Source: Candidatus Woesebacteria bacterium
Lineage (GTDB): Bacteria > Patescibacteriota > Microgenomatia > UBA8517
Reading direction: 5' to 3'
Assembly (NCBI GenBank): GCA_016700095.1
Contig: CP065002.1
Span: 867,141-931,140 of the forward strand
DNA length: 64,000 bases
Shown here: piece by piece, positions 4,725 to 48,513 of the stretch
How positions within the stretch are numbered: the stretch's first letter is position 1
Layout of the letters: every line of letters starts with the position of its first letter
The notes under the pieces: model-generated
The model's input: only the letters and a program-made list of their open reading frames with translations
Told to the model about the DNA's origin: nothing
Database searches by the model: none
Program-made: the position numbers and the translations under genes

Positions 4725-4733
4725 ACTTATATT

Positions 4734-10350: not shown

Positions 10351-10496
10351 GTAATGTTAATTTATAAATTGTTAATCCAAGCAAACCAAGGTAGAGGTAT
10401 TTTGATAATTGAATTGCCCGACCGGGGTGATGTGTGGCAAGAAAAAAACAAACTATAAATAGAATTACCGATGTTATACTTACTAATACACGTTTC
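10351..10496. promoter_or_regulatory. Divergent intergenic region between the 902-aa GT-C gene (minus) and the YfhO/GT39 pair (plus). Presumed bidirectional promoter.
   Basis: This is the only strand switch to plus for multi-gene transcription in the first 30 kb. AT-rich with TATAAT-like hexamers. No experimental support. Confidence 0.3.
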
Positions 10497-12458
10497 ATGA
10501 TCAAATTACCAAAGGTATCAACACGCAGTTTAATGCCGTACTTTTTCATAATTCTATCGACTATAGTATTATACCTCCCGGTTTTAATAAATAGTGATCT
10601 TTTTTTGAATAGAGGTAACGACTTAACCGAATTCTTCTGGCCGATTTATTTATATGTCAAAAACCAGATTTTAGCGACACATAAATTGCCATATTGGAAT
10701 GGCATGTTCTTGTCAGGTGTGCCACTTTTACCTGACCCCCAATCGCCTATCTTTTATCTTCCCAATATCATTTTTATGGTCTTGCCCATCGGAGTTGCTT
10801 TTATCATTTCATCGATAATACATACTGCATTTGGGGGAATCGGAACATATTTGGTATGCTACAAGGGACTAAAATTTAAGCTACTACCTTCATTGTTTGG
10901 ATCCTTTGCATATCTACATCTGGCTCGGTATAGCGGCTTCATAGAAGCCGGTCATTTCGGCTTAATAGCGGCCACAACATACATTCCTTACGTTTTTTTA
11001 TCACTAATTATGATCTCAAGAAATCCCTCCCTCACATGGTCGGTAATTTTTGCTTCAAGTTTAGCGGGTATATTTTTCACTCACCCGACAACATTTGTAT
11101 ACGCAGCACTTTTTTCATTTCCGGTATTTTTCACTCTTACTAATTTAACTAGGCGAGCACATAAAACTTGGCTTTTTTATATTATCGGCGGACTTATTTC
11201 ATTTGGATTTACGGCAATAACACTGTTACCTCAATTAAACTGGGTTCCTCAAACTAATAGATTTTTATTATCGGTTGATAAAGATGTATACCCCAAGTGG
11301 AATTCTATTGGCGAATATGCTCAAAGCATTTTCGCTCCGTGGCTTAATGGCATATCAGGGATTAGATCGATCGACTCGGAAAAATGGCTTTTTATTGGTA
11401 TATTGCCAAGTATATTGGCGGTATATGGTTTTACGCAAATTAAAACCGCAAAGAAGAAAGTATGTATAATGCTACTTCTATTTACCTTTGCCCTATTTTC
11501 TCTAAATAACTTGTCACCATTTTACACTGCGCTTCTTAATCAAAATTGGTATGTTTTCGGCCGTGTCTCAACGCGAGTATGGTTTATGGTTTCTTTTCCG
11601 ATTATTTTGCTGGCAACATATGCAATTAATGTTTTAAGCACTAAACACACCAGATTAGCTTACATTCTTGCAATGCTAGCAGTTGTTGAGATTACAACAA
11701 TTTCACTAAGCCACATTACCAAACCGATACGTAACGATAGACTTATAGCAAGTAAAAACGTCTTGTCTTTTCTTGCAAACGACAAAGATAGATTTAGAGT
11801 ATTTTGTACCACCAGATGTTTCTCTCAAAAGGATGTAGCCGAATACGGCTTAGAAACAATCGAAGGATACTCGACCCTGCACCAAAAAAATTATTACCAG
11901 AGTGCATGGGGAATGACCGGAGCTTATTGGAATTATTACACACTCACGCTTCCGCCAATCGGGTCATACAAATATGGGAAATTAGATCCAAATTATGAGA
12001 GTCTGGGCAATTTCAATACAAAATATATCGTATCGCCTTATGAAATAGTCCATTCCGATATCGTGTTTCTTACTGCTATTGATGGTTTTAATATTTATTC
12101 TAATAATAAATACAAACCACGTGGTTATTTTGTTGAAAACGACAAAACGCAGACAGCCGATATTAAATACTACTCTCCCAACAAAATCGTTATTAACGTC
12201 AACACCACATCAAAACATCTAATTCTCGCCGAAGTGTTTAGCCCCGGATGGATTGCTTTGGCCGACACGAAAAAAGTGCAAGTGCAAGAAACCCCCAATG
12301 CACAAAGAGCAATAGATTTACCATTAGATACTAAAATGGTTGAATTATATTATCAACCCGTCGGATATAATTTGGGAAAAACTATTACTGTTGCGACTTT
12401 GATTGGTTTATCGTTCTATGTATTAAGTGTTAACTTGAAGAAAATCAAACTACCTTAA
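10497..12458 (+). CDS. YfhO-family membrane glycosyltransferase (GT-C-like)
   Basis: FFWPIYLYVKNQILATHKLPYWNGMFLSGVPLLPDPQSPIFYLPNI closely resembles the conserved YfhO N-terminal signature (hexose-P-C55-dependent glycosylation of teichoic acids). The ORF track start at 10434 is a GTG codon. ATG codons at 10497 and 10536 are more plausible starts. Confidence 0.6.
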   Translation: MIKLPKVSTRSLMPYFFIILSTIVLYLPVLINSDLFLNRGNDLTEFFWPIYLYVKNQILATHKLPYWNGMFLSGVPLLPDPQSPIFYLPNIIFMVLPIGVAFIISSIIHTAFGGIGTYLVCYKGLKFKLLPSLFGSFAYLHLARYSGFIEAGHFGLIAATTYIPYVFLSLIMISRNPSLTWSVIFASSLAGIFFTHPTTFVYAALFSFPVFFTLTNLTRRAHKTWLFYIIGGLISFGFTAITLLPQLNWVPQTNRFLLSVDKDVYPKWNSIGEYAQSIFAPWLNGISGIRSIDSEKWLFIGILPSILAVYGFTQIKTAKKKVCIMLLLFTFALFSLNNLSPFYTALLNQNWYVFGRVSTRVWFMVSFPIILLATYAINVLSTKHTRLAYILAMLAVVEITTISLSHITKPIRNDRLIASKNVLSFLANDKDRFRVFCTTRCFSQKDVAEYGLETIEGYSTLHQKNYYQSAWGMTGAYWNYYTLTLPPIGSYKYGKLDPNYESLGNFNTKYIVSPYEIVHSDIVFLTAIDGFNIYSNNKYKPRGYFVENDKTQTADIKYYSPNKIVINVNTTSKHLILAEVFSPGWIALADTKKVQVQETPNAQRAIDLPLDTKMVELYYQPVGYNLGKTITVATLIGLSFYVLSVNLKKIKLP

Positions 12459-12489: not shown

Positions 12490-13980
12490 ATGAAATTAGT
12501 AATTTACAAAAACTACAAGATTATTTTAATATTAGTACTTTCTAGTTTACTACGTTTTTCCAACTTGCCTGCAAAAATTACTTTTACCGCAGATGAAGCA
12601 TATCTGTCCTACGTCGCCCAAACACTGATTAAAAACTTCCACATCATATGGATTGGTTGGAGTGCATTAGGGTTTGACGTTTACTTAGGGCCCTTATGGA
12701 TATATGTCATTTATCCATTTCTATATTTATCGCACGGAAATCCCATTATTCTGGGTTATATTTCCGGTTTTCTTGGAGTACTAACAACTTTTGCAATTTA
12801 TAAAATCGGCTCTAAATTTTTTAATCACCAAGTAGCCATCTTGTCATCACTAAGTTACGCACTATTGCCCTTATTAATTTATTATGATCAAAAACCTTAT
12901 CCACCCGCCATACCACTTATTAGTCTTCTTGTGACATTTGCTTTACTGAAAGTAAGAAAAAGCGCCAAGTGGTGGGTCGTAATTTCATTTCTTTATGGAC
13001 TGGTTTTTAATATTCACCTTTCATTGGTTTTACTTGCTTTTCCTATCCTTTACGCATTATTTACTGGAAAAAAATATCTTAACAAAAAAATATTAGTCAG
13101 TTCATTTCTGGTATTTATTGTTACCGTTTCACCGCTTATTGTTTTTGATTATTATAAGAAAGGGTACAACATACAAGCTCCCCTAAGAGCGTTTAATGCT
13201 AGTCAAAACTCTACCGAAAAAACCTCCGGTCATTACGACGAATTGTTTTCTTCCTTTGGACGAATTTGGTATTTGAATTCATTTAGTGAAGTCGCCGACG
13301 AAATAATACCAACATGCAAAGAAAATGCGCTATCGACTTACTCACGACCTCCGCTTGGCATATCTATCGTTTCGTTGGCAATTTTTATATCCTTTGCTCT
13401 TAATAAAAAAACATGGAAGGATTATTCGCGTAAAATGTTACTTTTTGTCAGTTTAACATTTATCATTCCTTTTACGTTAGTTACCGTTATTAATCCTGTT
13501 GAATATTATCTGCTGGGGTTTTTCCCGATTTTACTCATTATTACATCAGTAGTTATTTACGACCAAAGAAAAATAGTCAAGATGTTTTTATTGCTACTTA
13601 TGTTTTCGTGTTTGATCTATGCACCATTCGTAACCCTAAGAGCAAATACAAATTACGGTCTTGAGGCAAAAAAAGAACTGGCTCAACAAGTTGCCCAATT
13701 AGTCGACGGCAAACCTTATTACCTGCAAGCCCGTGGCGGTTGTCAAAGCGTGGGTGGATGGCGATATCTTTTTTCCATCTATGGGCAACGACCCGCAAAA
13801 AGCTATGACGACGTAAGTTTTGGCTGGCTTTATCCTGATGAAATAACAAGTGAAAAAAGCGTTTACGAAGTATTAGTTGTTGAGAAACGGGCAAGTGATC
13901 ACACTAATTTATATACTAATTACGTTAACAAGGTAACATCCGGGGGTTATGAGGCTTTGATTTATAAAATTAGTGATTAG
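12490..13980 (+). CDS. GT-C glycosyltransferase, ArnT/PMT (GT39/PMT_2)-like
   Basis: N-terminal TM helix then FTADEAYLSYVAQ (DE motif), with more than 10 TM helices after it. 496 aa. Confidence 0.65.
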   Translation: MKLVIYKNYKIILILVLSSLLRFSNLPAKITFTADEAYLSYVAQTLIKNFHIIWIGWSALGFDVYLGPLWIYVIYPFLYLSHGNPIILGYISGFLGVLTTFAIYKIGSKFFNHQVAILSSLSYALLPLLIYYDQKPYPPAIPLISLLVTFALLKVRKSAKWWVVISFLYGLVFNIHLSLVLLAFPILYALFTGKKYLNKKILVSSFLVFIVTVSPLIVFDYYKKGYNIQAPLRAFNASQNSTEKTSGHYDELFSSFGRIWYLNSFSEVADEIIPTCKENALSTYSRPPLGISIVSLAIFISFALNKKTWKDYSRKMLLFVSLTFIIPFTLVTVINPVEYYLLGFFPILLIITSVVIYDQRKIVKMFLLLLMFSCLIYAPFVTLRANTNYGLEAKKELAQQVAQLVDGKPYYLQARGGCQSVGGWRYLFSIYGQRPAKSYDDVSFGWLYPDEITSEKSVYEVLVVEKRASDHTNLYTNYVNKVTSGGYEALIYKISD

Positions 13981-14705
13981 GTGTGTAACTTTTTTGATAT
14001 ATACCTAGTCCAAAATACCAGAATATATGTTTGAATAAATATCGCCCATTTAACGGTTTGCAAATAGTTGCCGACTATCGCCGATTCACCGACTCTTTGT
14101 AAATATGTTACAGGTACTTCAACGAATGAAAGTTTGTTGGAAACGGTAAGTAAGGTTAATTGAGTATTAAAAAGAGGCGACTTCTCAAATCCCCACTTCC
14201 TTTTAAGAATATTTAGAGCTTTTCTAGAAAACAATTTATAAGTACAGCCCACATCCGTTAAAGCGTTGGTATTAAAAAGCACTTCAATAGTTTTTGCTTC
14301 AATTACATTGGCAAATTTACGAAACACGCCCATACCGGCACCGGAGAGTGACGAAATTAAACTCGTACGTGAACCAAGTACTACTTCAAAATCATTTGAG
14401 TAAACCAGTAGTCGCTCCAGGTCTTTTGCCAAAAAGCTTCCATCCGGTTCACACGCCACTATAAGATCACCTCTTGCCGTGTTTAATCCCTTCTGAAAGG
14501 CATATCCATATCCCTGGCGATCTTCGTATACTATTTTTACACCGGTTTTATTTACTTCTTGGTCTGTACCTTTTTGGGCATTATTGTTTACTACTATGAT
14601 TTCATCAACAAATTGTGTTTTTTGAAAACTTTCGATTACTCTGCGAATCGTTTTTTTCTCGCGGTATGTGGCTAAAACTAAAGAGACTGTTTTTCCTTTA
14701 TACAT
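13977..14705 (-). CDS. GT2, DPM1/GtrB-like polyprenol-phosphate sugar synthase (soluble form)
   Basis: VSLVLATYREKKTI...EIIVVNNN...ACEPDGSF; 242 aa. The Gtr-like arrangement with the adjacent small membrane protein and GT-C is described in the findings. Confidence 0.65.
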   Translation of the reverse strand: MYKGKTVSLVLATYREKKTIRRVIESFQKTQFVDEIIVVNNNAQKGTDQEVNKTGVKIVYEDRQGYGYAFQKGLNTARGDLIVACEPDGSFLAKDLERLLVYSNDFEVVLGSRTSLISSLSGAGMGVFRKFANVIEAKTIEVLFNTNALTDVGCTYKLFSRKALNILKRKWGFEKSPLFNTQLTLLTVSNKLSFVEVPVTYLQRVGESAIVGNYLQTVKWAIFIQTYILVFWTRYISKKLHT

Positions 14706-14707
14706 AT

Positions 14708-15139
14708 TTATTTACATTTATAAAATTCATAAACCGATATTGTGAGCCCCAAGATAAAAGCCTGAAACATATAAATCATTGTTCGCTCGGCCCACACGCC
14801 AACCCCTAGAGCGAGCAATAATTCCGCAAAGGCTAAAAAAAACAACGATATCACAAAAATAACTTTGCTAGTTGCCCCAAGCATTATTACGGCAAGAATC
14901 AAACTAATCATGACAATAATATTTATCGTTAGTGGCAAAAAGGGGTGAAAATATCCGGCAGAATGAAGCAAGACAAGAAGTATTAGAATAATATTATAGG
15001 TAAATAGACCGGAAAGATGTTTATTTGCCCATGCTTTTGTTTTGACCTCTTTATGTCCCCAAAAGGTTCTTGACAGTCGTTTATTTATGTACTTTTTTAG
15101 ATCTTTTAACATAATTATAAAGAGGAAATATGAGCACAC
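14708..15139 (-). CDS. Small 3-4 TM membrane protein, possibly a GtrA/GtcA-like lipid-sugar flippase. Function unproven.
   Basis: 143 aa with hydrophobic helices. Sits between a GtrB-like GT2 and a giant GT-C. No recognisable GtrA signature, and the true start is uncertain. Overlaps the 3' end of the upstream gene. Confidence 0.3.
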   Translation of the reverse strand: MCSYFLFIIMLKDLKKYINKRLSRTFWGHKEVKTKAWANKHLSGLFTYNIILILLVLLHSAGYFHPFLPLTINIIVMISLILAVIMLGATSKVIFVISLFFLAFAELLLALGVGVWAERTMIYMFQAFILGLTISVYEFYKCK

Positions 15140-18038
15140 ATATCACAACCGTCGCCAAACTTACAAATAGTCCAAAGTAATAATATTTCTGTGTGGTATA
15201 GAATATTGTAAATTCCTGTGTAGTGCTATTCCCGGGCATATACCAAGCGTTTGCGTATCCATGGGCACTAAAGTGTAGTGGTTTTCCCAAATATGAGGCG
15301 CTAACGATATTCCAGTTCGGACTATATTTTTCCAAAAACACTAGCAAGTAATTATCATTGATATTTTCCACCTTCACCTTGTACTTCGTTGGGTTAACTT
15401 TTGTAAAAGATACCGTTGGAGTATGTATCGTGTCAGCATTTTGTTCTATTAAAAAAAGCTTATTATCATAGATACGCTTAAAGGAGATATTTTCAAAATA
15501 TGTTTTACTTCTCTTCTCCCGACTATCAACTGGGATTTCTATCACCACATTCATCGTTGAACTTGCTCTGACTGGTTCAACAAAAATTTCTTTTTTATTC
15601 CAATCGGTATCTTCATCGACTTTAGTGGGTAAAACCTTATACTTCGCAGCTCCGCTTTCTTGGACTATATTAACATTCGGTGTATTACCATAGATATATT
15701 TGTATTCATATGAGAACAGATAATTGGCGTATGGATTGAATTCATCTACCGGGACAATTAGACTCTTCTCATTAATACCATCATTAAACACGATCAACAC
15801 ATTGTCGTTATTCAATAATTCTTCTCCTTTGATATGGAGATTTTCATTTCCCTTTAATACCAGATCTTTGCTGATCAGGTTACTGTTCTCAGGATAAACA
15901 ATATCCACATTATGTTCACCCTGCGTGACCTTAATATTTTTGAGTATGTAAAATGTATCGGTTTCAACAATTTCTGTATCTTTATTTAACAGATCCGGGA
16001 AAATTACGCTTAGATCACTTCCGTTGTAACCTCTTTTTTCGATCGCTAATTCATAAATTCCCTCAGGAACATTTATTAAATACCTTTGACGATTTCCAAC
16101 CGGATTACTGCCATAGGTCGTATTGTCTAACTGGAATATGTTTTTCTTGATATCTTGCGAATTATCTATCTTATTTACTTCACTGTCACCAGCGAGAGTA
16201 ATTACGCGATTTGGATCAAGATATGGCAGTAACGTATCAAATACAGAATCATCAGAATTATTTGTATATAGTCCGTTTGCAGTAAGAATTTTACCAGGAT
16301 AGTCAGCATTTTGGTAAAAAGTCCATTCACCGAAAACCAGTTTATCTTTTTCCGGTATTTCTTTTGAATGATATATGGATACGGCGTCATTTTTCATGAA
16401 TAAAGTATCAGCATTCAAAAACGATAGAGACTTAAATACCGAGTCGTAATTCTCCTGTTTGATATTATTATAGATTCCTTGCAATATAGGCTTTAGTCCC
16501 TTACCCAGAAAAACAAAGGATGGTGCCACGGTTTCTTTGGACGAAAATAGATTAAGAACGGTTTCTGTACCCCTATATCCCCATTTAAACTGTTCCAGTT
16601 CATCCTCGGGATAAACAACGATACGAGCACTACTCTCACTATTATCAAGATATTTTTTTGTTTCCCATACATAGTCGGGGATTTTAACAAAAAAACTATC
16701 TGATTTTTGTGGACGAAATATTTTACCTGTTATAAGTGGATACTCATAAAGTAAGCCTCCAATTACAAAAATTACTACTCCCAAATATATCAAGCGCTTG
16801 CCAAGTATTATATTGAGAATTTTCTTGTCACCAAACCTTTTTAATATATTTTCAACAAGTAATCCGGAAAGCACGGCATATGCCAATATCACGTAAGGCG
16901 TAAATATATACCATGGACTTCTGAAAAACGAAAAGTACGGTATATATTTAGCCATCAAATTATATAAACTACCTGTTGGTTCATGTAATCCGGCTCCCAT
17001 AAAGATACCGATTACCAACATAATTCCTGTATATACATACAAATAGTTTTTCTTATTGTTTAGTAAGATGTAGGAAATAATTACAAGCGTTGGAACAACA
17101 AAACTAAACAGAATAAAGGGGAGTTTATAAAAATAGTTTAATGCGTATGGAATATACATCGGAAAACCCGATTGATCAACGGCATACCAATCCCAAGCTC
17201 CTTGTAATCTAATAACATTCAGAAGGCTGGTGTTTTCAGATAATGCCGCAACCCAGTTTGTATATCCAATATTCTCCAGAGTTAATACTGCTCGATCCGC
17301 TAGCATAAAGTGCGAAAACGGTACAACCCAATATAAATTTGACATAATGATAACTACACTCATTAACATTGCACCTAAGAAGATATGTCTGATTTCTCGT
17401 TTTCTAAAAGGTAATATTGTTAGAAAGTAAATTATCACTCCACCCATTAATGTAATAATATATGCAGGATTTATCCCGGCACCTGAAGTAATCATGGAAA
17501 ACAAAACACTATAAAAGAGTAACTTCCCATTCGATAGGGCATCAAATACATATCGATTGGCTAACCCAATAAATAGCGGTAAACCTACCATAACTGCGAG
17601 GTTAGCAACTTTAACGTTTTCCCATGTGTTGAACAAATAAATATTATATGTATAAATAAATACAAGTATTAGCTGAGCAAGTTTATTGTTTTTAAGAAAG
17701 GTTCGCGAAAGATAATAAGAACCAAAAACAATTGAAGAAAACCAAAATACAAGTGAGATTATTTGCACATGCCGTAAATTAAATCCCAAAACATGAGGTA
17801 TAACTTGAATCAAATGAAAAAACCAACCGGAAGTTGACGTTGTCGCATCCGCGCCGGTTCCAATTGTGTCATTCCAAACAAAAAAGCGTCTTTCAAACCA
17901 GACCAGAGGATCAAGTGGAAAGTTGGTATCTAGTCCATTAATGATGACATCGGGTCTACCAACAAACCACAGCAATGGAGTTAGTGACATGGCAAACATT
18001 ATAATTGTAAGCCAATGCTCTTTAATTATTTGTTTCAT
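15081..18038 (-). CDS. Giant GT-C-like membrane glycosyltransferase (985 aa), AftD/DUF3367-like
   Basis: The N-terminal loop GRPDVIINGLDTNFPLDPLVWFERRFFVWNDTIGTG resembles the DTKLDL...W.P..G.G signature of alpha-(1->3)-arabinofuranosyltransferase-like proteins. About 14 TM helices and a roughly 550-aa extracytoplasmic C-terminus. Confidence 0.5.
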   Translation of the reverse strand: MKQIIKEHWLTIIMFAMSLTPLLWFVGRPDVIINGLDTNFPLDPLVWFERRFFVWNDTIGTGADATTSTSGWFFHLIQVIPHVLGFNLRHVQIISLVFWFSSIVFGSYYLSRTFLKNNKLAQLILVFIYTYNIYLFNTWENVKVANLAVMVGLPLFIGLANRYVFDALSNGKLLFYSVLFSMITSGAGINPAYIITLMGGVIIYFLTILPFRKREIRHIFLGAMLMSVVIIMSNLYWVVPFSHFMLADRAVLTLENIGYTNWVAALSENTSLLNVIRLQGAWDWYAVDQSGFPMYIPYALNYFYKLPFILFSFVVPTLVIISYILLNNKKNYLYVYTGIMLVIGIFMGAGLHEPTGSLYNLMAKYIPYFSFFRSPWYIFTPYVILAYAVLSGLLVENILKRFGDKKILNIILGKRLIYLGVVIFVIGGLLYEYPLITGKIFRPQKSDSFFVKIPDYVWETKKYLDNSESSARIVVYPEDELEQFKWGYRGTETVLNLFSSKETVAPSFVFLGKGLKPILQGIYNNIKQENYDSVFKSLSFLNADTLFMKNDAVSIYHSKEIPEKDKLVFGEWTFYQNADYPGKILTANGLYTNNSDDSVFDTLLPYLDPNRVITLAGDSEVNKIDNSQDIKKNIFQLDNTTYGSNPVGNRQRYLINVPEGIYELAIEKRGYNGSDLSVIFPDLLNKDTEIVETDTFYILKNIKVTQGEHNVDIVYPENSNLISKDLVLKGNENLHIKGEELLNNDNVLIVFNDGINEKSLIVPVDEFNPYANYLFSYEYKYIYGNTPNVNIVQESGAAKYKVLPTKVDEDTDWNKKEIFVEPVRASSTMNVVIEIPVDSREKRSKTYFENISFKRIYDNKLFLIEQNADTIHTPTVSFTKVNPTKYKVKVENINDNYLLVFLEKYSPNWNIVSASYLGKPLHFSAHGYANAWYMPGNSTTQEFTIFYTTQKYYYFGLFVSLATVVICVLIFPLYNYVKRSKKVHK

Positions 18039-19680
18039 ATTCTTTCTTTATTTCATCAGTAATTTCAATTAATGATTCAATATCTCCTTGCCATTTATAG
18101 GCTATAATTGCATTACTTGGAATATTATATTCTTTTATTGCATTAAATAACTTATCTTTATCTCTAAAGTATCCAAAACCTCGACCGTCATACTCTTTGT
18201 AACCCTCCTCTTTGATCTCCCAAAGAAATTTGTTTTCATAAAATTGGACAGGAAGTTTTTCCTCGCTATACCAAACCAATAAAGTCTGGCCCAATCCTGA
18301 TTGAAAAGGTAATATTTTGTCGGTTTCTGGAAGTCCAAAATAAGAAGTATCGCTTTGGGTATAAAAAACTACCCTGTCAGGTAATTTGGTATGGCTGGCT
18401 TTAACTGCTAGTAATATATTTTTGCGTATTATTCCATAATCAACAAGTGTTTTAATTTGTCCAGTTAGGGCAACAATGTTTGTAATTATAACTATCGAAA
18501 GCGCGATATGTTGTGCTTTTTTATTTTTAAAAAGAGAATCCACTATCATAATAAGGAGTATAAACACTCCAACGCTTGTTAAGTATAGATTTCTCGAGTC
18601 GAGAACATTAATCTTTCCAAACCGCTCTGGGGACAAAGCATATATTAAGCTGTTTAAAATTACATAAACATAGAAGAACAATATTATATTTTTCTTTTCT
18701 TTGTCTTTGTGTCTTATGTACACAATATATATAAGGTATGAAAATATTACAAAAAAGGCTAAGGATAACCCCTCAAGAATTATTTTCTGTGCAAACAAAT
18801 CAAAGGTGGTTGTCCCAATAACAGGTCGTAACGATTCGGGTATTTTCGCCGCAATGAAATAACTAATTTTTATGAAGTACTGCAGGGGAATCACTGTTTG
18901 CGTAACAGTCTTCATGGGAAACGTAAGTAAGTTGTAAGTAATATCGGTCAAGCTTTGAGTTTCTGTTATCATGGGAGTAGCTCCGACGTTGTGTATAAAT
19001 AACATACCCGCTCGAAGTACAAAAAAGGATACTCCTGTTGCCAATGTTGCTATAAGTTGTTTATGTTTATTTTTGTTATTACTTAGATACAAGATTAGGG
19101 CATACAAAGCAAACATACCAATAGCGATTTCTTTGAACAATAAAGCGGCGATAAGCAACACAATCGAGTATGACCATCTGCGAAAATTTCCAGTTTTTCC
19201 ATATTTTATAAAATAATAGATAGAGATCAACGTGAATGAGGTTGCTCCATGTGTATTAATATTTGCCCCAACCCACGTGGTTGCTTGATAAATTGAAGCG
19301 GAAACACCAAATAGTAATGCAACTATCGATGCATAATATTTCCGCTTTAAATTCAATAAGACTAACTTGTAAACAAGAACAACATTTACTAAGTGCCACA
19401 CTAAACTTGCTCCAAACCACATTTGGTAATTTAAGTTAAATAACTTAAATATTGTTAGAAATACTATTCTTTGAAGTGGATTGTAATGATTTATTTCTAA
19501 TCGAAAGTAGCTAATTACCGTCACAAGAGGATTCTTTCCGACATCTCCCAAAACATCCGCAAACGCCAACCATTCATCTTGAGCAAAAAACGATTGGAAA
19601 CATCTTATGTAAGAAAGACATACTACCGCCAAACATGCAAACAAACCATATTTATCTAGATATTTACTTTTATTTTCCAT
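18022..19680 (-). CDS. GT-C-like membrane glycosyltransferase of the 'FxQD(D/E)' subfamily
   Basis: FFAQDEWLAF follows the first TM helix. About 11 TM helices and a roughly 150-aa soluble C-terminus. Paralogous N-terminal motif to the genes at 23351..25321 and 25318..27987. Confidence 0.45.
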   Translation of the reverse strand: MENKSKYLDKYGLFACLAVVCLSYIRCFQSFFAQDEWLAFADVLGDVGKNPLVTVISYFRLEINHYNPLQRIVFLTIFKLFNLNYQMWFGASLVWHLVNVVLVYKLVLLNLKRKYYASIVALLFGVSASIYQATTWVGANINTHGATSFTLISIYYFIKYGKTGNFRRWSYSIVLLIAALLFKEIAIGMFALYALILYLSNNKNKHKQLIATLATGVSFFVLRAGMLFIHNVGATPMITETQSLTDITYNLLTFPMKTVTQTVIPLQYFIKISYFIAAKIPESLRPVIGTTTFDLFAQKIILEGLSLAFFVIFSYLIYIVYIRHKDKEKKNIILFFYVYVILNSLIYALSPERFGKINVLDSRNLYLTSVGVFILLIMIVDSLFKNKKAQHIALSIVIITNIVALTGQIKTLVDYGIIRKNILLAVKASHTKLPDRVVFYTQSDTSYFGLPETDKILPFQSGLGQTLLVWYSEEKLPVQFYENKFLWEIKEEGYKEYDGRGFGYFRDKDKLFNAIKEYNIPSNAIIAYKWQGDIESLIEITDEIKKEYETNN

Positions 19681-23156: not shown

Positions 23157-23350
23157 GTAAGTGCAATTTTATATCTTATATATTACTGTTACAATCATTT
23201 CCTAAAAACATAATATGCGATAAATATCTATTTTCATGTCAAGTATAACTAGACTTATAAGTCTTTATAATGAGAGGAGAATTATACGAGTACGCGAAAT
23301 TTTATTAAGAAACCGCATAAATCCCATATTTTTTATCTTTCACTTTAATT

Positions 23351-25321: not shown

Positions 25322-27987
25322 TGTGAATCACTACTAAGTTCATCAATCATGTCGTTACTAATCAATTCATTGAGTGATAAACTTCTCACGCTTATATTTG
25401 AAATCTCGAAACTAATTGGGATAGAGAATTTGATGTTAAATCTATCAACAGAAGTACCTCCTGCAGGAATAACAATCTTGTACGTATGATATTTGCCATC
25501 TATAACAATCGGAAAACTACTGCTTTGTTTGTCTATATCTCCTTTATCCGTCTTCCAACTGATAGTCGCAAATGAAATTGGTTCAGCTTGTTCGTATAAA
25601 ATATCCCATTCATTTTTATTACTAGCAAGTGAAAGGGGATCGTCGTAATACGTATGCGCTTGAGCAAACGAAATTGAATTAAATCGATCTTCCACCACTT
25701 CAAACTCCAATAGAGATGGTGAATCGTCTGTTTGAGTTTTGCTGATGACCATTCGTACATATCGAGCATCAGTTGCGGCAAACTTTTCCACAATCTGTTC
25801 TACATTTTTTCTCTCAGGTCCATTTACAACTGATTTTCGAACTGACCAGTTTTTCCGGTCAACTGAAGTTTCTATGCTGTAAGTCACCGGTGCAAGCGAC
25901 GTTTTCCAATTCGTCCATATTACACTTCCAATTTTTTTAACTTTACCCAAATCAACAATCAATTCTTCGTGTCCTTTTTCATTCCAATAAATTCTGTGTC
26001 CTTGCCATGTAGTTGTAATATTTTTATCTACAGCATACCCAACTTCCCTAAATCTCCAATCAGACAGACTATTGCTTACTACTTCCGCATAATAATCGTT
26101 TCTAGCCTTGAGATACTCAAGTATCAAAAGCTTCTCTTTTAGGGAATATTTAATTGGTTTATAATTCGTTGGAGGTATTCCTTTGGCAGCAGAAATAGTA
26201 AGTTTTAACTCAACAGGTACCAACGGGATTGCCACCACATCACTTAATGATGTAAATACGGTGTTTTCCGACCCGTTATTGAGAAGTTCTCGCATTTTGT
26301 AAGTATTGTCTACTAGTCCATTTTTCCCGTAATAGTATGAATACAAATAGTCAATTTCCATGTCCCCATTTGCAATATATAAAACCGTTTCATTGAAGTC
26401 TGTTAAATGTCGCACGTCATATCTGTCAACATCATAATACATGGCAAGGGCAGTCGATTCCGGCATAGAACCTACCGAAAAAAAATCATAGAAGCGTTGA
26501 GGGTAAGGCGGTTCTAGAGACACGTCAAAATAAAATCCAGATCCTTTTTCAATATCAGGCACATATGTTAATAATTTAGTATAAAATTCTCTTGTAGTTT
26601 TACTGCGTGTTTCAACTAAATTAGCTTGATAAGTAAATCCGAAATAAAGGTGCATGGAAAGTATTCCTATTAAAAGACCCTTGCCTAAAAACGACTGTTT
26701 ACTTTTTTTGTTTTCCCCAAGCTTAATAATAGAAACAAATATTATTGCAAACCCAATCACTACATAACTAAAGTAGCGATGTGTTGTTCCCCATATAGCA
26801 CTTGGATACTGAACATAGTAACCAAATACTTGTGTCACAATTACAATAAAGGCAAAGAAAGCTACCTTGGACAGCTTTTTATTCTTGTGTATATTTTGAA
26901 TACAAATTGTAAAACTAAAGACAATAAACTCAATCCCTAGAGCTCCAGAAAATATATCTGCAATTTGCCGATACCAAAGGTAGTCTAATGAATAAAGAAA
27001 TAAGTTTAATATCATTCCCAAAAAAAGAATTCCAATCCCAATAATTTTCTTCTTTGTTGCCTCATGACACATCGCCAGTAGATAAAAAACGGAAAACAAA
27101 CCAAACGCAAAACCAGAAACTACAAAGGCTTGGTCTGAAACTATACGGGGTAAAACGAAGGTTAACAGTTTTTCTTGGAGTGGATATGCAAAAACAGAAT
27201 TACCAATATTTGCAAATAATGGCGCCAAAATTTCTACATTTCCTGCAACTAATTCATTGACTAAACTTACTAAACCCGGCCCACCGAATCCTTCATTGGT
27301 TAGATAACGAAAGTAGAATATAAACAAAAATGGAATCTGTCGAATACCATATTTTAAAAGTGATGTGACCTTTGAAATATTTACTAGAAACAGTGCATCT
27401 AAAACCACAATCGGGACAATAAGCGAGTGAGAACGAATAAATACAAACTCTGTTGCTGCCCAATAAAAAAAGACAGCGAGAAAATAATGAACTTTCTTTT
27501 TCTTTTTTGTAAACTTAACAATCTGTTCAAAAGTTAAGAACGCCAAAATAAGTCCAAAGTTAGTTTGCCATGAATTAATAACTCGAAACATAATGTCACT
27601 ACCTATATAACCTGCTGCAAATATAAGTGTCGAATAGTACGCATATTTTATTTCACCATACAATTCTCGGACAAATCGATGAAAGAAATAGGTTGCGATA
27701 ATATATGTGATAAAACCTATAAAAAAATATCCGAACGGGTCTTTGCCGAAAAGTGGAAAAAACGGAACAAACGGTGTAACTAAATATTTATATGCACCAT
27801 GGCCAATAATACCTTCTCCGAAACTCCCCGCGGCTCCTTCCGGGTTTTGAAGTTTAAAAATAAGAGCTGAATCGTCTTGCCAAAAGTACATTTGTAAAGT
27901 CTGTCCGTATGCAATCAGTACGACAATAATTACAAGAAAGATAAACGATAATTTACCCAAGCGAATGTTTTTAATTCTTTTTTTCAT
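25318..27987 (-). CDS. GT-C-like membrane glycosyltransferase, 'YFWxDD' subfamily (889 aa), with a C-terminal discoidin (F5/8 type C)-like carbohydrate-binding domain
   Basis: YGQTLQMYFWQDDSALIF follows TM1, with about 13 TM helices. In the C-terminal region (about nt 25700..26100) the segment WQGHRIYWNEKGHEELIVDLGKVKKIGSVIW...YSIETSVDRKNWS...ARYVRMVI...LLEFEV matches the discoidin-domain pattern. Confidence 0.5.
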   Translation of the reverse strand: MKKRIKNIRLGKLSFIFLVIIVVLIAYGQTLQMYFWQDDSALIFKLQNPEGAAGSFGEGIIGHGAYKYLVTPFVPFFPLFGKDPFGYFFIGFITYIIATYFFHRFVRELYGEIKYAYYSTLIFAAGYIGSDIMFRVINSWQTNFGLILAFLTFEQIVKFTKKKKKVHYFLAVFFYWAATEFVFIRSHSLIVPIVVLDALFLVNISKVTSLLKYGIRQIPFLFIFYFRYLTNEGFGGPGLVSLVNELVAGNVEILAPLFANIGNSVFAYPLQEKLLTFVLPRIVSDQAFVVSGFAFGLFSVFYLLAMCHEATKKKIIGIGILFLGMILNLFLYSLDYLWYRQIADIFSGALGIEFIVFSFTICIQNIHKNKKLSKVAFFAFIVIVTQVFGYYVQYPSAIWGTTHRYFSYVVIGFAIIFVSIIKLGENKKSKQSFLGKGLLIGILSMHLYFGFTYQANLVETRSKTTREFYTKLLTYVPDIEKGSGFYFDVSLEPPYPQRFYDFFSVGSMPESTALAMYYDVDRYDVRHLTDFNETVLYIANGDMEIDYLYSYYYGKNGLVDNTYKMRELLNNGSENTVFTSLSDVVAIPLVPVELKLTISAAKGIPPTNYKPIKYSLKEKLLILEYLKARNDYYAEVVSNSLSDWRFREVGYAVDKNITTTWQGHRIYWNEKGHEELIVDLGKVKKIGSVIWTNWKTSLAPVTYSIETSVDRKNWSVRKSVVNGPERKNVEQIVEKFAATDARYVRMVISKTQTDDSPSLLEFEVVEDRFNSISFAQAHTYYDDPLSLASNKNEWDILYEQAEPISFATISWKTDKGDIDKQSSSFPIVIDGKYHTYKIVIPAGGTSVDRFNIKFSIPISFEISNISVRSLSLNELISNDMIDELSSDSQ

Positions 27988-28043: not shown

Positions 28044-28808
28044 TTATTTAAAAATATTACTTTTATATATGTTTAGGTTATTTAATATGTAAAGCAGTAA
28101 AACCGCAAGTGAATTAATTCCAAATTTCAAACCGGGTAGCAATTTAATAGAAGAAGACTCTTCGTAAAATCTAACAGGAATTGGTATTTCTCCAATTCTT
28201 ATTCCCTTGGCTATAGCAGAAACCGTGAATTGCTGATCAAAAATAAAATCATTTGAAAATCGCTGAAACGGTACAGTTTCGAGAGTGGTTGCGGAGTAAG
28301 CCCGCATACCCGACATGTGTTCACTAAAATTTACACCCAGTACTGGATTGGCAAATAATGTATACATCCGATTAAACAAGTATTTATGAAGGGGCATTCC
28401 GCCATCTAGCGCTTCTTTGCGAGTTCGTATTCTACTCCCAAATGTGTAACCGTATCGCCCTTGTAAAATTGGCCGAATAAGTTCTTCTATCAAAGTTGCG
28501 TCATACTGATAATCGGGATGAATCATTACAACCACTTGAGGTTTGTACTGAAGCGCTTCCCAGTAACACGTTTTCTGATTACCACCGTAACCAAGATTTT
28601 TCGGATGTTTATAAACTTCAATCCCCAATTTTTGAGCGGTTTTGACAGTTTTATCCTTACTGCCATCATCAACCAATATTATCTTTTTGACAATTTTTTT
28701 GTTTATGTCAGCGAAAGTTTTTTTGAGCGTTTTTTCAGCATTAAATGCTGGCATAACGACTATAACTTTTGGCTTTCCCAACTTTCTTGCGCGTCTTTCT
28801 CTATTCAT
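28044..28808 (-). CDS. GT2, DPM1/GtrB-like polyprenol-phosphate sugar synthase (soluble form)
   Basis: VIVVMPAFNAEKTL...IILVDDGSKDKT...HPDYQYD; 254 aa with no TM. Confidence 0.7.
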   Translation of the reverse strand: MNRERRARKLGKPKVIVVMPAFNAEKTLKKTFADINKKIVKKIILVDDGSKDKTVKTAQKLGIEVYKHPKNLGYGGNQKTCYWEALQYKPQVVVMIHPDYQYDATLIEELIRPILQGRYGYTFGSRIRTRKEALDGGMPLHKYLFNRMYTLFANPVLGVNFSEHMSGMRAYSATTLETVPFQRFSNDFIFDQQFTVSAIAKGIRIGEIPIPVRFYEESSSIKLLPGLKFGINSLAVLLLYILNNLNIYKSNIFK

Positions 28809-28918
28809 ATTCTTAATACATCGATGTATATGGATTGCCTAACGTGGTAACACTGGGTACTGCTTTATATTTATTATAACTAACTCCATTCATTAACATA
28901 GAAGTTAAATGCCCACTT

Positions 28919-30994
28919 TTACAAATTCCCGTGACTATTTGGAAATACGATATCAGTATCTAATTTAATTGGATTTGGGGTCCATCCTCCAAAATCTTCG
29001 GATACATCCGCCTCAAACACTTCCAGTTTATCAAAATATACATCCGACTGTGATTCTTGGTATACACCAATACTCACAACAGCATAACTCGAATTTTTAG
29101 GTATAGCGTGTGCAAATTGTTGTTTGGTAAACTCACTACTTGTTATCCGCGGTGATATTCGAACCGCGGTTCTATTTTTACGTTCGGTCGCATCACTTGC
29201 ATTTTTAAAGTATTCAACAAAGACGAAACCATCTCTGGAGTTCAATCCTTCAAGTTTCGACACATGGGTTATCATTAATCCCTTTATATTATCTACACTA
29301 AAATAATTTGAGCTCCAGCTTCGAAAGTTAACTTTTTCATTTTTGTTAAAGGTAAACTCCAATAACAGATTTTTTACTCTCACATCCCTATCGGGAATTT
29401 TTACTACTACAAAATCAGACTCGGGTGCTAATGCAGGATTTGTAATCGAAAAAATCGAATAATCGGAATATTCTCGAATTACAAGTGCTGGATACGCCTC
29501 TTCAAGTAATTCTACCGGTTTGTTCCAGTATTTAAGAGAATTCATTGTCCCTTGGGACATCCACCAATAAAATTCATTTGTCATCCATTCTAGGTTTATC
29601 GCTACGAAGTCTGCATCATTAAATTCCTCCATACTATAATTATGTTTTTGATCAAACGGTAAACGTTCATAATTAACGCTATCAAAATTAACCGAGGAAT
29701 GTGCTGCTATCTTTGAACCCGGAGGTATATTTTCCTCGATCCATTTTTTAGTAATCAAATAGTTCCATTCCTGTCTATACTCATTTCCCACTACAACAGA
29801 TTTTGATATATTTTCAAACAGAGCTAGTCCAATTAGAGGAATAATAATTAATAAACCCACCTTTTTTGGAACTGATTTTGATATTTGTACTACAAATGCT
29901 GATGCAAAGATCATTAATAATGGAGTTACCGTAATAAAGTTTCTCGTGTAAAACCCTCCTCCAGTAAGAAATGTTATGACAATCAAAAAAGGTACAATCA
30001 CAGATAGCAGCATAAGCTTCTCTTTAAATCTGGTAAAAATACTTATTATTCCCAAAATTACGAGCACGCTTGTAACCCTACCCAAACCATAGTGGTACAA
30101 ATATGAATAAGGGAAAAAATCGAATTCATTTTTACCTGTTTTATATTTCAAAGATACATCTACTATCTGTTCTCTAAATTGCTCAAAGTGAATAAAGTGA
30201 TAAGGATTTATTATTAAAGTAATAACCATTATCGACAATCCTGCAATAAATATTTTTTTGTCAAACAAACAACCTATTAAAGCGCTTTTGTTTTTAAAAT
30301 GAAAATAAAAATGAGCTAAAAGTAAAGGTGGTATGGCGTAAACATGAAACTTTGTGGAAAAAGAAAGTCCAGCTCCAATTCCCGCTAAAAGATAACTCTT
30401 AATACTTGGTTTATCAATAATTCGATAGGTTAGTAATAGTGAAAGTAATAAAAAAAATGCATTATAAATATCTGGTAAAGCGAGGTGGCTGTTTAGAACT
30501 TGTCTGTAATTTACAGCTACAAACACAGATGATAACAATGCAACTTCTTTTGCAAACATTTTTTTTGCAAGTAAATAAGTTAACAAGACATTTCCAACAC
30601 CAACTGATGCCGCAATAATTCTACCCCAAGTAAGAACATGTATTTCTCTAATCCCTAATATACTGAGTTGTAAGATTTTATTAGATTCTTCGGTTGTTAG
30701 TGGAAAGTTATACAATCCGTCGACGAACATGCCAATGTTTGATATGTAAAACTTCCCCCAAGAAAATGGTATAAATATTAATTTAAAAAATAGAGCGTTT
30801 AGTATCGGTATTAAACCCGGATATGCATAGTGAAGGGAATAGCCGTTTGCATCTAGCGTACCATCAATCAATATATAAATCCCTTGAGAATAACTCATTC
30901 CTTCGTCAGCATGATATGGTGGATAACCGGGATAAATACCAGTAAATCGCAAATAAGCTGCAGCAAAAAGAATTGCTAGTAATATTTTTTTCAT
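28919..30994 (-). CDS. GT-C glycosyltransferase, ArnT/PMT (GT39/PMT_2)-like (691 aa), with a roughly 300-aa extracytoplasmic C-terminal domain
   Basis: LRFTGIYPGYPPYHADEGMSYSQ (DE motif after TM1), with about 11 TM helices. Confidence 0.65.
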   Translation of the reverse strand: MKKILLAILFAAAYLRFTGIYPGYPPYHADEGMSYSQGIYILIDGTLDANGYSLHYAYPGLIPILNALFFKLIFIPFSWGKFYISNIGMFVDGLYNFPLTTEESNKILQLSILGIREIHVLTWGRIIAASVGVGNVLLTYLLAKKMFAKEVALLSSVFVAVNYRQVLNSHLALPDIYNAFFLLLSLLLTYRIIDKPSIKSYLLAGIGAGLSFSTKFHVYAIPPLLLAHFYFHFKNKSALIGCLFDKKIFIAGLSIMVITLIINPYHFIHFEQFREQIVDVSLKYKTGKNEFDFFPYSYLYHYGLGRVTSVLVILGIISIFTRFKEKLMLLSVIVPFLIVITFLTGGGFYTRNFITVTPLLMIFASAFVVQISKSVPKKVGLLIIIPLIGLALFENISKSVVVGNEYRQEWNYLITKKWIEENIPPGSKIAAHSSVNFDSVNYERLPFDQKHNYSMEEFNDADFVAINLEWMTNEFYWWMSQGTMNSLKYWNKPVELLEEAYPALVIREYSDYSIFSITNPALAPESDFVVVKIPDRDVRVKNLLLEFTFNKNEKVNFRSWSSNYFSVDNIKGLMITHVSKLEGLNSRDGFVFVEYFKNASDATERKNRTAVRISPRITSSEFTKQQFAHAIPKNSSYAVVSIGVYQESQSDVYFDKLEVFEADVSEDFGGWTPNPIKLDTDIVFPNSHGNL

Positions 30995-36688: not shown

Positions 36689-38773
36689 TTACTTATATAT
36701 TTTTACTTCCACCTTATCTATTGTACTCAAGCATTGGTCAATTGGACTCATGACAATACGAGCAAATCTAGTCTCATTGCCTATAAATGGAATGACGATA
36801 TTTTTGTCAGTAGGATAGAATCCCATAAGCGGTACACTCCAATCTTCTTTGGGCATAGTCCCAGGTAAACGTTGCCAATTTGTATTGTCTGTAGAAATTT
36901 GAACATAACCATGCTCTATATCCAGACATCGTGCGTCATCGTACGAAATACTAATTTTAGCTAAATCAACTATCTTTCCGAGATCAACAACAAACCCTTG
37001 ATCTGAATATTCGTATGTAAAACCATAATAGTCTGAAATTGACGAGTATTTCTCGGTTCGATATTTTGCTGTGTTTTCCCACACTTTTAATATCGATGCT
37101 CCATCAACATCTATTGAGTAAATTGGGTGTAATCCCAAATTAAGATATCTGTCGTGAAACGAAGTTAATTCAGTTCCTTGGTACGTCAATGCAATTATAT
37201 ATTCTCCCTCTTGAAGGATCCCGCTTCTGTAAGAATTTGAAAGTCTTATATCAGGTCGTATCCAAATGAGAGGTATGTTGGGGATAAGTTCACGAGCGTA
37301 AGCGAGCTTAGTCCCATGAGGTGTACTTTTATTTATCCATGATATACCTTCCCTATACGCTACGCCAAAACTATTTCCAGCAGCCGGAAAATTTATAGAT
37401 CTGGCACCAATATGTCCTCCTATTAGTGAATTGAAATAAACATTTTCGTTCGGGTGAAGAGAAATTAATCTAAATATATGGAAAGTATAACCAGATATTA
37501 ATACTATCCAAAATAGTGATCGGAGTATTTTTTGCTTACTTACCAGGTTGTAAATCGTCAAAGCACCAATACCGCACAATATTGATAAAGGCGCAACATA
37601 CTCCATTATCTGACGGACTCCACCATAAATATTTGTTCCCGGGGCAGTAACTCTTGCAATTGGAACTATCAACCAAAGAACAACCAGAAAATAAAATCCA
37701 TTATTTCGATTTCGTAAATCACATATAGCCTTTGTTAATCCCAGTGCCGATAGAATAAGAACGATTATCGGGGTTGAGAACACTATCCACAACATGGGGT
37801 ATAGATTAATTCCACCAAAGGCAATGAATCGTTTGTCGAAAGAGTCCGTAAGTCCAATTTCATGATAGAAATTCAATACGGTTTTGATATTAGACAAAGG
37901 ATCTAGCCATAAAAATGGCCATAGTGCAATAAAGATAAATAATGCCAGAATGGGAATACAAAACAGAGTCATTATAAGCGTTTTGTTTTGTAAAAGTATT
38001 TTTTTAATTTCACTACGCCTGGGATACAATAGTAGAATCATCCAGGGCAATACGATGAATGGTAAAAAAAATGCATTAAACTTTGTTCCCAAAGCTAGTC
38101 CGGACGTTATTCCTGCAATCAACAACAATCGCTTTTTCTTTCTGAGAACTCCATACCACACAAGCATAAGTGTTAATAAAATATATACCGCTTCTGGAAT
38201 ATCTTTCTCATTATTAAAATGAGCTTCGGACCAATACAGTGGATACGACAACAAAGTTAAGGCAGATATAAATCCTGCAAGATATGAATTTGTTGTATCA
38301 GAAATCCAATAAAATAAAAAAGCGACCGACATTGAAAAAAGTAATATTGAATATACACGATATGAATCAATATCATTAATTATTCCCCATTTCTGAAATA
38401 GAAAGTAGTTAAATAGCGACGAAATAATATCGCTTGCAGGAGGATGTCCACCATCGTTTTCCATAAAATAATTAAAATCAACTCCAGCATTTTGATATAA
38501 ACTAACACGAGCTACATCTTCTCGCGATTTGTCGATTGGGCTAAAAGCTAGTTTGTCCGGATCTTGCCAGTATTTCGTAAATGTCGGCAAATTCGAGAAA
38601 TCACGAGAACCAGTTAAGAAATAATTCAGATATGCTTGTCCGCGCGGCAAGTGATTGATAGTATCCCAGTTAATTCCATAGTGTGGGAGCGTAACCAATC
38701 CAAGAATAAACACTAGAACAAAAATAAATAAAGTGTACAACCTAATATTGCGAAGTTTTTGGCTTTTAATCAT
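36689..38773 (-). CDS. GT-C-like membrane glycosyltransferase (PMT_2-like, 694 aa) with a C-terminal discoidin-like domain
   Basis: About 12 TM helices. The N-terminal loop HYGINWDTINHLPRGQAY carries a degenerate acidic motif. The C-terminal roughly 115 aa (about nt 36689..37040), DLGKIVDLAKISISY...NWQRLP...TRFARIVM, resembles the discoidin pattern seen in 25318..27987. Confidence 0.5.
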   Translation of the reverse strand: MIKSQKLRNIRLYTLFIFVLVFILGLVTLPHYGINWDTINHLPRGQAYLNYFLTGSRDFSNLPTFTKYWQDPDKLAFSPIDKSREDVARVSLYQNAGVDFNYFMENDGGHPPASDIISSLFNYFLFQKWGIINDIDSYRVYSILLFSMSVAFLFYWISDTTNSYLAGFISALTLLSYPLYWSEAHFNNEKDIPEAVYILLTLMLVWYGVLRKKKRLLLIAGITSGLALGTKFNAFFLPFIVLPWMILLLYPRRSEIKKILLQNKTLIMTLFCIPILALFIFIALWPFLWLDPLSNIKTVLNFYHEIGLTDSFDKRFIAFGGINLYPMLWIVFSTPIIVLILSALGLTKAICDLRNRNNGFYFLVVLWLIVPIARVTAPGTNIYGGVRQIMEYVAPLSILCGIGALTIYNLVSKQKILRSLFWIVLISGYTFHIFRLISLHPNENVYFNSLIGGHIGARSINFPAAGNSFGVAYREGISWINKSTPHGTKLAYARELIPNIPLIWIRPDIRLSNSYRSGILQEGEYIIALTYQGTELTSFHDRYLNLGLHPIYSIDVDGASILKVWENTAKYRTEKYSSISDYYGFTYEYSDQGFVVDLGKIVDLAKISISYDDARCLDIEHGYVQISTDNTNWQRLPGTMPKEDWSVPLMGFYPTDKNIVIPFIGNETRFARIVMSPIDQCLSTIDKVEVKIYK

Positions 38774-43700: not shown

Positions 43701-44312
43701 TTATATTTTTTCGGATAAATCTGAAGCTTTGTTTGCCAAGTCAACAAGAAGTTTTTCGTCGTTTGTCATAGATAAGAAAATCGCTAGCTTTGATATATTT
43801 TCAAGTCTGGTGTTTATGCCATGCACTTTCTGACCATAGTTTCCACCTTTTTTGCTTATGTCGTTAACCTTTTCTTCCGCTTTGTCCAACTCTTCAATTG
43901 CATCTTTGAGCGTATCTGAGGCAGCATCTTTTTTACCTTCGTTTAGTAATTTTTCAGTTTCCAGAGTCCGTTTGACTGCAATAAATACATGATAATCTAC
44001 TTTCTGCGAACTTCCAAAGATAAGTGCACCTCTTGTTTTTTCTTTAATCCTTTTTAAGAAATACATTTTTTCCGTACGTGTCTTTCCCGCAACAAGTGGC
44101 CAAAACAATTCGTACGAATTTATCTCACTATCTTCTTTTTCTCCCATTTCCCAAAGCATATTTCCCTCTGCTTCATCGGTTGCGGTTTTGTCCTCTGACA
44201 GTTTCATTTTTGCACTCGGAGACACTTCGTTAGTCTTTTCCGCCAATATCATACTTGACGAGCCAGAAATAATAAGTGCTGCTAAAAACATACTAAGTAG
44301 GATTTTCTTCAT
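43701..44312 (-). CDS. Secreted or lipoprotein-like protein with a signal peptide and a K/E-rich coiled-coil C-terminus. Hypothetical.
   Basis: MKKILLSMFLAALIISGSSSMILA looks like a signal peptide. The remainder is hydrophilic and charged. Flanked by unusually long AT-rich intergenic regions. Confidence 0.45.
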   Translation of the reverse strand: MKKILLSMFLAALIISGSSSMILAEKTNEVSPSAKMKLSEDKTATDEAEGNMLWEMGEKEDSEINSYELFWPLVAGKTRTEKMYFLKRIKEKTRGALIFGSSQKVDYHVFIAVKRTLETEKLLNEGKKDAASDTLKDAIEELDKAEEKVNDISKKGGNYGQKVHGINTRLENISKLAIFLSMTNDEKLLVDLANKASDLSEKI

Positions 44313-48465: not shown

Positions 48466-48513
48466 ACAATCTTGTACGATTATACTGCAGAAAAATGAAG
48501 CGATACAGCGCAA

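Follow-up and report, generated by a model that had tools for sequence, protein, structure and literature searches.

The 64,000-nucleotide stretch analysed here (contig CP065002.1, positions 867,141 to 931,140; hereafter the window) is from the genome of a Candidatus Woesebacteria bacterium, a very small, uncultured organism of groundwater type. It encodes an 889-residue protein that, in our assessment, is probably a glycosyltransferase of the GT-C fold that acts outside the cytoplasm, depends on a lipid-phosphate sugar, and contains a lectin module of the CBM32 type (CBM, carbohydrate-binding module). An initial annotation of this DNA, made from the letters alone, had proposed a discoidin-like module fused to a GT-C enzyme at positions 25700-26100. 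This region is spanned by a single open reading frame (ORF), whose translation contains the peptide that had been quoted. In NCBI, the identical protein is entered as QQS38615.1 under the name ‘discoidin domain-containing protein’; its source is a metagenome-assembled genome (MAG; 1.27-Mb contig) of a Candidatus Woesebacteria bacterium with the lineage Patescibacteria group / Microgenomates group. The discoidin call is already in the public annotation of that entry, where the remainder of the protein is unannotated.

The GT-C-fold membrane domain

The model of the protein has 13 transmembrane (TM) helices. Clusters of Lys and Arg are found at the N-terminus and in loops 159-165, 306-314, 365-374, and 424-430, the alternate loops being nearly free of both residues, and from this distribution we assign an N-in/C-out topology. 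It follows that the loop carrying D38 and D39, R185, R404/Y405, and the whole C-terminal region (residues 476-889) would lie outside the membrane. In a comparison of the model with known folds, the top scores were those of Pmt4 (19.1), AftA (17.2), Pmt2 (16.6), ALG12 (16.5), and STT3B (16.2), followed by AglB (15.4), PglB (14.9), ArnT (14.4), and then ALG9, PIG-M, Pmt1, PIG-U, ALG6, and ALG3; AftD (13.0), AftB (11.8), PimE (10.4), and DPY19 (10.2) scored lower. Below the GT-C proteins, the score falls to 8.8, at which point the matches are unrelated helical proteins. Sequence identity to the GT-C matches is 7-12%. The predicted structure contains the conserved GT-C helical core within a polytopic membrane protein.

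Conservation was assessed in a family profile of 41 aligned sequences, to which all residue counts refer. D38, D39, G57, and Y66 of the first outer loop are invariant, as are Q141, R185, R404, and Y405, all located at outward-facing helix ends or in loops. The two aspartates belong to a YFWQDD motif directly after TM1 and are also kept in a 656-residue paralog encoded next to the gene. In the model, the first outer loop holds helices 39-47 and 71-80, and the outer loop 230-285 has just three short helices. The catalytic acid of GT-C enzymes is located in the first outer loop, a placement stated for ORF12 of family GT136 and others (PMC11127046), and D38/D39 supply acidic residues in the first extracytoplasmic loop after TM1. 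The fold matches, led by Pmt4 and AftA, and this invariant pair support the earlier description of the predicted membrane domain as a GT-C enzyme.

The GT-C-fold domain could in principle be non-catalytic, like PIG-U/GAB1 of the glycosylphosphatidylinositol transamidase, so that the protein would serve as a membrane-anchored lectin or scaffold that organises other GT-C enzymes of the island. We regard this as very improbable: the Asp-Asp pair sits exactly at the position of the GT-C catalytic acid, the invariant Arg and Tyr on the outer face form an active-site-like pattern, and the coupling to a donor-synthase glycosyltransferase of family GT2 (below) would be without rationale.

Residues 1-620 match no Pfam or NCBIfam family, and a profile of the N-terminal part only (10 sequences) retrieved no PDB sequence at E ≤ 10. 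Aligned by hhalign with the neighbouring PMT_2 enzyme, the protein gave an insignificant probability of 1.9%. Pfam PMT_2 is reached by just two of the 41 relatives (P0060, 31.5 bits against a cutoff of 26.1). The protein differs from Pmt1/2/4 (GT39) and the PMT_2/ArnT-like enzymes (GT83) in that it has no MIR domain and no Pfam PMT or PMT_2 match, and assignment to PMT (GT39) was rejected because both the PMT and MIR matches are missing. The lectin module of PMT enzymes is, moreover, inserted in a loop, whereas that of the present protein is C-terminal.

The ectodomain and its discoidin module

The region after TM13 is predicted to comprise, in order, an α/β domain, a long helix, the discoidin module, a helical linker, and a second β-sandwich. 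The description ‘fused to the C-terminus’ is thus roughly right for the discoidin module, which is nevertheless internal to a larger ectodomain, with the linker and the terminal β-sandwich following it. The α/β domain carries the motif DFFSVGSMPESTALA, in which G506 is invariant and M508 and P509 are each found in 38 of the sequences. In its longer form, DFFSVGSMPESTALA(I/M)YY, this is among the most conserved motifs of the family, and its position after TM13 recalls the motif-bearing periplasmic domain of PglB/STT3.

Residues 641-756 (nt 25720-26067) match Pfam F5_F8_type_C (PF00754) with an E-value of 3.9e-11 and 43.6 bits, well above the curated cutoff of 28.2, as the initial annotation had anticipated. 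PF22633, the NedA-like galactose-binding domain, is likewise above threshold on this region, and the structure prediction shows the eight-stranded distorted β-sandwich (jelly-roll) of the fold. When the full-length family profile was compared with PDB sequences, only the discoidin part was matched, and all of the matches were CBM32-type modules. The best are the CBM32s of Clostridium perfringens NagH/NagJ (E 4e-12); others are YeCBM32, the GH89 CBM32s, the Paenibacillus chitosan-binding DD modules, galactose oxidase domain 1, and a sialidase galactose-binding domain. All 41 homologs carry the domain by Pfam, and no other segment of the 889-residue protein is as well conserved. The module genuinely belongs to the discoidin/CBM32 fold family.

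Within it, D654, W668, P700, Y703, P757, and E761 are invariant. In galactose oxidase domain 1 and CBM32 structures, a D-x-N-x-x-T stretch close to the N-terminus and a Glu close to the C-terminus make up a structural metal site (Ca/Na), and D654 (41/41), N/D656 (34/41), T/S659 (40/41), and E761 (41/41) fit this pattern at the level of sequence. The inter-strand loops of the model hold the conserved motifs W661-x-G-H-R-x-x-W668, W691-x-N693, and T751...D755-x-P757, and these loops align with the loops that flank the strands of the DD2 chitosan-binding CBM32. We count the conservation of these apical motifs in favour of a lectin function, as it suggests that the putative binding face is under selection.

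The GT-C enzyme might be as described and the discoidin module might bind something other than carbohydrate: a protein acceptor, such as an S-layer protein or pilin in a PMT-like O-glycosyltransferase, or, as a spacer, the membrane or peptidoglycan. We consider this unlikely, since every method ranked bacterial carbohydrate-binding CBM32 modules first, the apical loops keep aromatic and polar residues (W661, R665, W668, W691, N693, and D755) of the type expected at sugar-binding sites, glycan biosynthesis accounts for the entire neighbourhood, and the accessory β-sandwiches of known GT-C enzymes bind glycans.

Proposed donor supply

Directly upstream of the gene lies a 254-residue GT2 enzyme that is likely to be a polyprenyl-phosphate sugar synthase. 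In NCBIfam it is most similar to AglJ, PpgS, dolichyl-phosphate hexose transferase, and PgfS, with every score far below the respective equivalog cutoff. When a profile was built from the orthologs, the best PDB match was Pyrococcus furiosus dolichol-phosphate mannose synthase (DPMS; 5mlz, E 6e-13), followed by ArnC (1.6e-5) and GtrB (1.7e-3), all three of which make polyprenyl-phosphate monosaccharides. Genomic context was evaluated over 12 distinct loci, including the window. A GT2 gene of about 250 codons is directly upstream of the family gene in six of them (the window, L001, L004, L005, L006, and L009), and at L008 a GT2 is found within 1.6 kb. In one further protein, P0088 (L013 2131-5217), a GT2 sharing 63% identity with the window enzyme is fused in frame to the GT-C and discoidin protein. 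The adjacent or fused DPMS/ArnC-like enzyme points to a polyprenyl-phosphate-sugar donor, and a synthase of this kind encoded together with a GT-C enzyme is what three-component systems have.

The donor could instead be a polyprenyl-diphosphate-linked oligosaccharide, in which case the protein would be an oligosaccharyltransferase, ligase, or polymerase-type enzyme whose CBM32 measures or holds the polymer. The layout of 13 TM helices plus an α/β domain fits such an enzyme. Yet the WWD motif (WWDYG in the C-terminal soluble domain of oligosaccharyltransferases) occurs in none of the 41 members, on which ground an assignment to the oligosaccharyltransferases (STT3/PglB/AglB, GT66) was downgraded. 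The adjacent and once fused GT2 most resembles synthases of polyprenyl-phosphate monosaccharides (DPMS, ArnC, GtrB, PpgS, AglJ, and PgfS), and the top fold matches, Pmt4 and AftA, use monophosphate donors. A diphosphate-linked donor therefore seems quite unlikely to us.

Weighing the lipid-phosphate-sugar transferase

Several observations weigh against an enzyme that uses a lipid-phosphate sugar and carries a lectin module. The 889-residue protein has no match to any GT-C sequence family in Pfam, NCBIfam, or the PDB sequences, so that its membership of GT-C rests on the predicted structure. The positions that we take to be the galactose contacts of C. perfringens CBM32, mapped by profile alignment, are not conserved, and ligand specificity is consequently not transferable from those modules; carbohydrate binding by the discoidin module is an assumption. 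The GT2 neighbour is missing from about half of the 12 loci, and the P0088 fusion was seen on one 14-kb contig from one sample, where an assembly or stop-codon error could have produced it. Finally, no GtrA, SMR, or MATE-type flippase was found next to the gene in a search of the gaps in the window. The gaps at 28809-28918 and 23157-23350, which flank the gene pair and are shorter than 200 bp, leave no room for a small flippase; apart from a 143-residue membrane ORF at 14708-15139 (reverse strand) that the family-library scans did not cover, the only flippase candidates, two Wzx-like genes and one EamA gene, are 18-20 kb away. That ORF, for which several hydrophobic helices are predicted, might encode a small transporter or flippase; it sits between a GT2 gene (13977-14705) and an AftD-like gene and shares 59 nt with the 3′ end of the latter.

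We nevertheless favour the lipid-phosphate-sugar transferase with a lectin module and suggest the following mechanism. At the cytoplasmic face, the GT2 would attach the sugar to polyprenyl phosphate, and the lipid-linked sugar would then be flipped, a step for which no dedicated flippase gene was identified. The GT-C domain would transfer the sugar, by means of D38/D39, to an extracytoplasmic acceptor, either a cell-surface glycan or possibly a glycoprotein, with R185, R404, and Y405 as probable phosphate ligands. The CBM32 module might tether the acceptor or the growing product glycan near the active site, and in this way raise the local substrate concentration or set its register. The proposal, already made in the initial annotation, that the module binds product or acceptor glycan is in keeping with the experimental precedents of EmbC, AftD, and GT136 ORF12. 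‘Processive or quality-controlled’ extension, proposed there as well, is possible but not implied, as the EmbC and AftD precedents stand beside a CBM that is dispensable for the activity of ORF12.

Comparison with known systems

The combination of a GT-C enzyme with a CBM was established before, and the present case is a sound annotation rather than a surprise. Arabinan is bound by the C-terminal CBM of EmbC from Mycobacterium tuberculosis, and mutation of this CBM lowers the amount of arabinan made and shortens it (PMC3044687). EmbC resembles the present protein, as modelled, in being a GT-C enzyme with a lectin-like module at its extracytoplasmic C-terminus; the EmbC module binds the acceptor and affects polymer length. 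AftD, mycobacterial arabinofuranosyltransferase D (PDB 6W98/6WBX), has three CBMs, and for its Ca-binding CBM the authors took the CBM32 entry 4A45 as structural homolog (10.1101/2019.12.22.885152). AftD is, at about 1,400 residues, larger than the window protein; it also has additional TM helices at its C-terminus and binds an acyl carrier protein. The two share 7% sequence identity, and Pfam GT-C_AftD does not match the 889-residue protein but matches another gene of the window. The donor of AftD, decaprenyl-phosphate arabinose, is not a GT2 product and arises by another route, unlike the donor that we propose here.

Another such enzyme is ORF12 of Citrobacter youngae (GT136; Kelly et al. 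2024, PMC11127046), part of a three-component system. In this GT-C enzyme the catalytic Asp follows TM1, and the C-terminal CBM, a β-sandwich, binds the acceptor polysaccharide, the unmodified O-antigen. ORF12 works with a polyprenyl-phosphate sugar synthase encoded nearby, as is likely for the protein of the window. ORF12 differs in having 11 TM helices, an Ig-like rather than a discoidin CBM, and a phosphoribosyl-type donor synthase; its system also includes a MATE flippase, whereas none was found beside the 889-residue gene. The GtrB-GtrA-Gtr*, ArnC-ArnE/F-ArnT, and CsbB-GtcA-YfhO systems (PMC8035078) likewise pair a GT2 polyprenyl-phosphate sugar synthase with a GT-C transferase, but their GT-C partners have no lectin modules, and the small flippase that is part of each is not evident here. 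The CBM32s of glycoside hydrolases (C. perfringens NagH/NagJ/GH89/NanJ and Paenibacillus IK-5 DD1/DD2) are on secreted degradative enzymes, whereas the module described here is on a biosynthetic membrane enzyme, and their ligand-contact residues differ from those of the window protein.

No concept of how enzymes combining a GT-C domain with a CBM work is altered by our finding. What is gained is a fold-level annotation for a protein that is named publicly by its accessory domain only, with a GT-C transferase part and a likely donor-supplying partner gene. The lectin-on-GT-C design of mycobacterial arabinan synthesis and enterobacterial O-antigen modification would also be present in ultra-small bacteria of the candidate phyla radiation (CPR). 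We found no paper on the family when we searched the literature for CPR or Microgenomates GT-C proteins with discoidin domains.

The paralog and the distribution of the family

The 656-residue paralog is encoded immediately downstream and overlaps the 889-residue gene by 4 nt. It is distantly related to residues 12-573 (hhalign probability 99.8%, E 8e-30), and hhalign also pairs its C-terminal part with the terminal β-sandwich (probability 66%, E 5.7e-5), a domain that the two proteins probably have in common. It has the same GT-C and α/β domains and no discoidin module; as the module is present in one paralog and absent from the other, the discoidin domain and its flanking helices behave as a cassette. 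Examination of the 11 other loci revealed no such tandem pair of a long and a short gene.

A scan of 1.84 billion representative sequences with residues 1-620 returned just 337 clusters (50% identity) at E ≤ 1e-3. Among the best 150 of these clusters, about 135 have at least 736 residues, so a C-terminal extension is present. The homologs with a source name are from Woesebacteria, Daviesbacteria, Blackburnbacteria, and ‘Microgenomates’. In 185,579 species-representative genomes, the family was found at only seven loci, too few for a robust co-occurrence statistic. Five of the records, third-party annotation (TPA) MAGs (L007, L009, L010, L011, and L012), are titled ‘uncultured Gammaproteobacteria bacterium’. 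The gene is otherwise restricted to Microgenomates, and this title is probably a placeholder or mislabel.

More tentatively, the membrane domain with its DD loop, which matches nothing in Pfam, NCBIfam, or the PDB sequences and whose records are named for Microgenomates only, may found a new glycosyltransferase family. Together with the adjacent or fused polyprenyl-phosphate sugar synthase, it would make up a minimal extracytoplasmic glycosylation unit of two genes; the CBM32 cassette would be swappable and would guide the two paralogs to distinct acceptors on a surface glycopolymer specific to the lineage. We offer this extended proposal as a possibility about which we are rather doubtful; the family would probably merit a glycosyltransferase family of its own if activity were shown.

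Multiple copies of the GT-C and discoidin gene lie close together in some genomes: on one strand of L010 at 12-2135, 2207-5014, and 7007-9013, and in L005 at 1-1903 and 5001-7877, with an oppositely oriented PMT_2 gene between them. The occurrence of two or three copies suggests lineage-specific expansion.

The genomic island

The whole window is a surface-glycan assembly island (Table 1) in a genome of about 1.27 Mb. In addition to the genes of the table, it contains at least 10 GT2 genes, four GT4 genes, five S-adenosylmethionine (SAM) methyltransferases, a DegT gene, epimerases, dehydratases, and several large membrane ORFs without annotation. That at least 64 kb of so small a genome, with a dozen or so GT-C-like enzymes, serves surface-glycan assembly suggests that these episymbionts have elaborate envelope glycans that merit characterisation.

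Table 1. Features of the 889-residue gene and of its surroundings in the window; residue numbers refer to the 889-residue protein
Feature	Position (nt)	Strand	Basis
Whole gene, 889 aa	25318..27987	-	ORF; identity to QQS38615.1
GT-C-fold membrane domain, aa 1-475, 13 TM helices, N-in/C-out	26563..27987	-	predicted structure
First extracytoplasmic loop, aa 33-83, motif YFWQDD; D38/D39 putative catalytic or donor-binding acidic pair	27739..27891	-	conservation 41/41; model
Extracytoplasmic α/β domain, aa 476-610, motif DFFSVGSMPESTALA	26158..26562	-	model; conservation
Loop aa 611-615 and long connecting helix aa 616-635	26080..26157	-	model
Discoidin / F5-F8 type C / CBM32-like β-sandwich, aa 637-768	25684..26079	-	Pfam, PDB profile matches, model, conservation
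Helical linker, aa 769-805	25573..25683	-	model
Second, terminal β-sandwich, aa 806-870, P-x-GGT motif conserved	25378..25572	-	model; hhalign to paralog
Downstream 656-aa paralog, YFWNDD loop	23351..25321	-	hhalign
Upstream 254-aa GT2, likely polyprenyl-phosphate sugar synthase	28044..28808	-	Pfam GT2; ortholog profile
PMT_2-type GT-C, 691 aa, frequent family neighbour	28919..30994	-	Pfam PMT_2/PMT
Other PMT_2-type GT-C genes	3333-4724, 12490-13980, 36689-38773, 61322-63148		Pfam
AftD-like GT-C	15081-18038		Pfam GT-C_AftD match
YfhO-like gene	10434-12458		
Wzx-like flippases (two)	6393-7697, 47200-48513		
EamA gene	45534-46400		

Seven of the 11 other loci have a homolog of the 691-residue PMT_2 enzyme (tblastn, 22-39% identity) upstream of the family gene, at a distance of at most 4 kb; at L009, the homolog is downstream instead. 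A 552-residue membrane ORF at 18022-19680 (reverse strand) has no Pfam or NCBIfam match. Its first TM helix is directly followed by FFAQDEW, a sequence similar to the YFWQDDS loop of the 889-residue protein, and the ORF may be another unannotated GT-C enzyme. Large ORFs without a Pfam match, all on the reverse strand, are at 7642-10350, 55184-56608, and 57907-59553. The first has just a sub-threshold NCBIfam match, to ‘MmpA family trehalose lipid delivery protein’, and the last a weak tblastn match (E 0.009) to the TM region of the 889-residue protein. A DUF5667 protein is encoded at 43701-44312 (reverse strand) and another in the Daviesbacteria locus L001 (568-1068), beside a PMT_2 gene; DUF5667 may be a conserved accessory of such islands.

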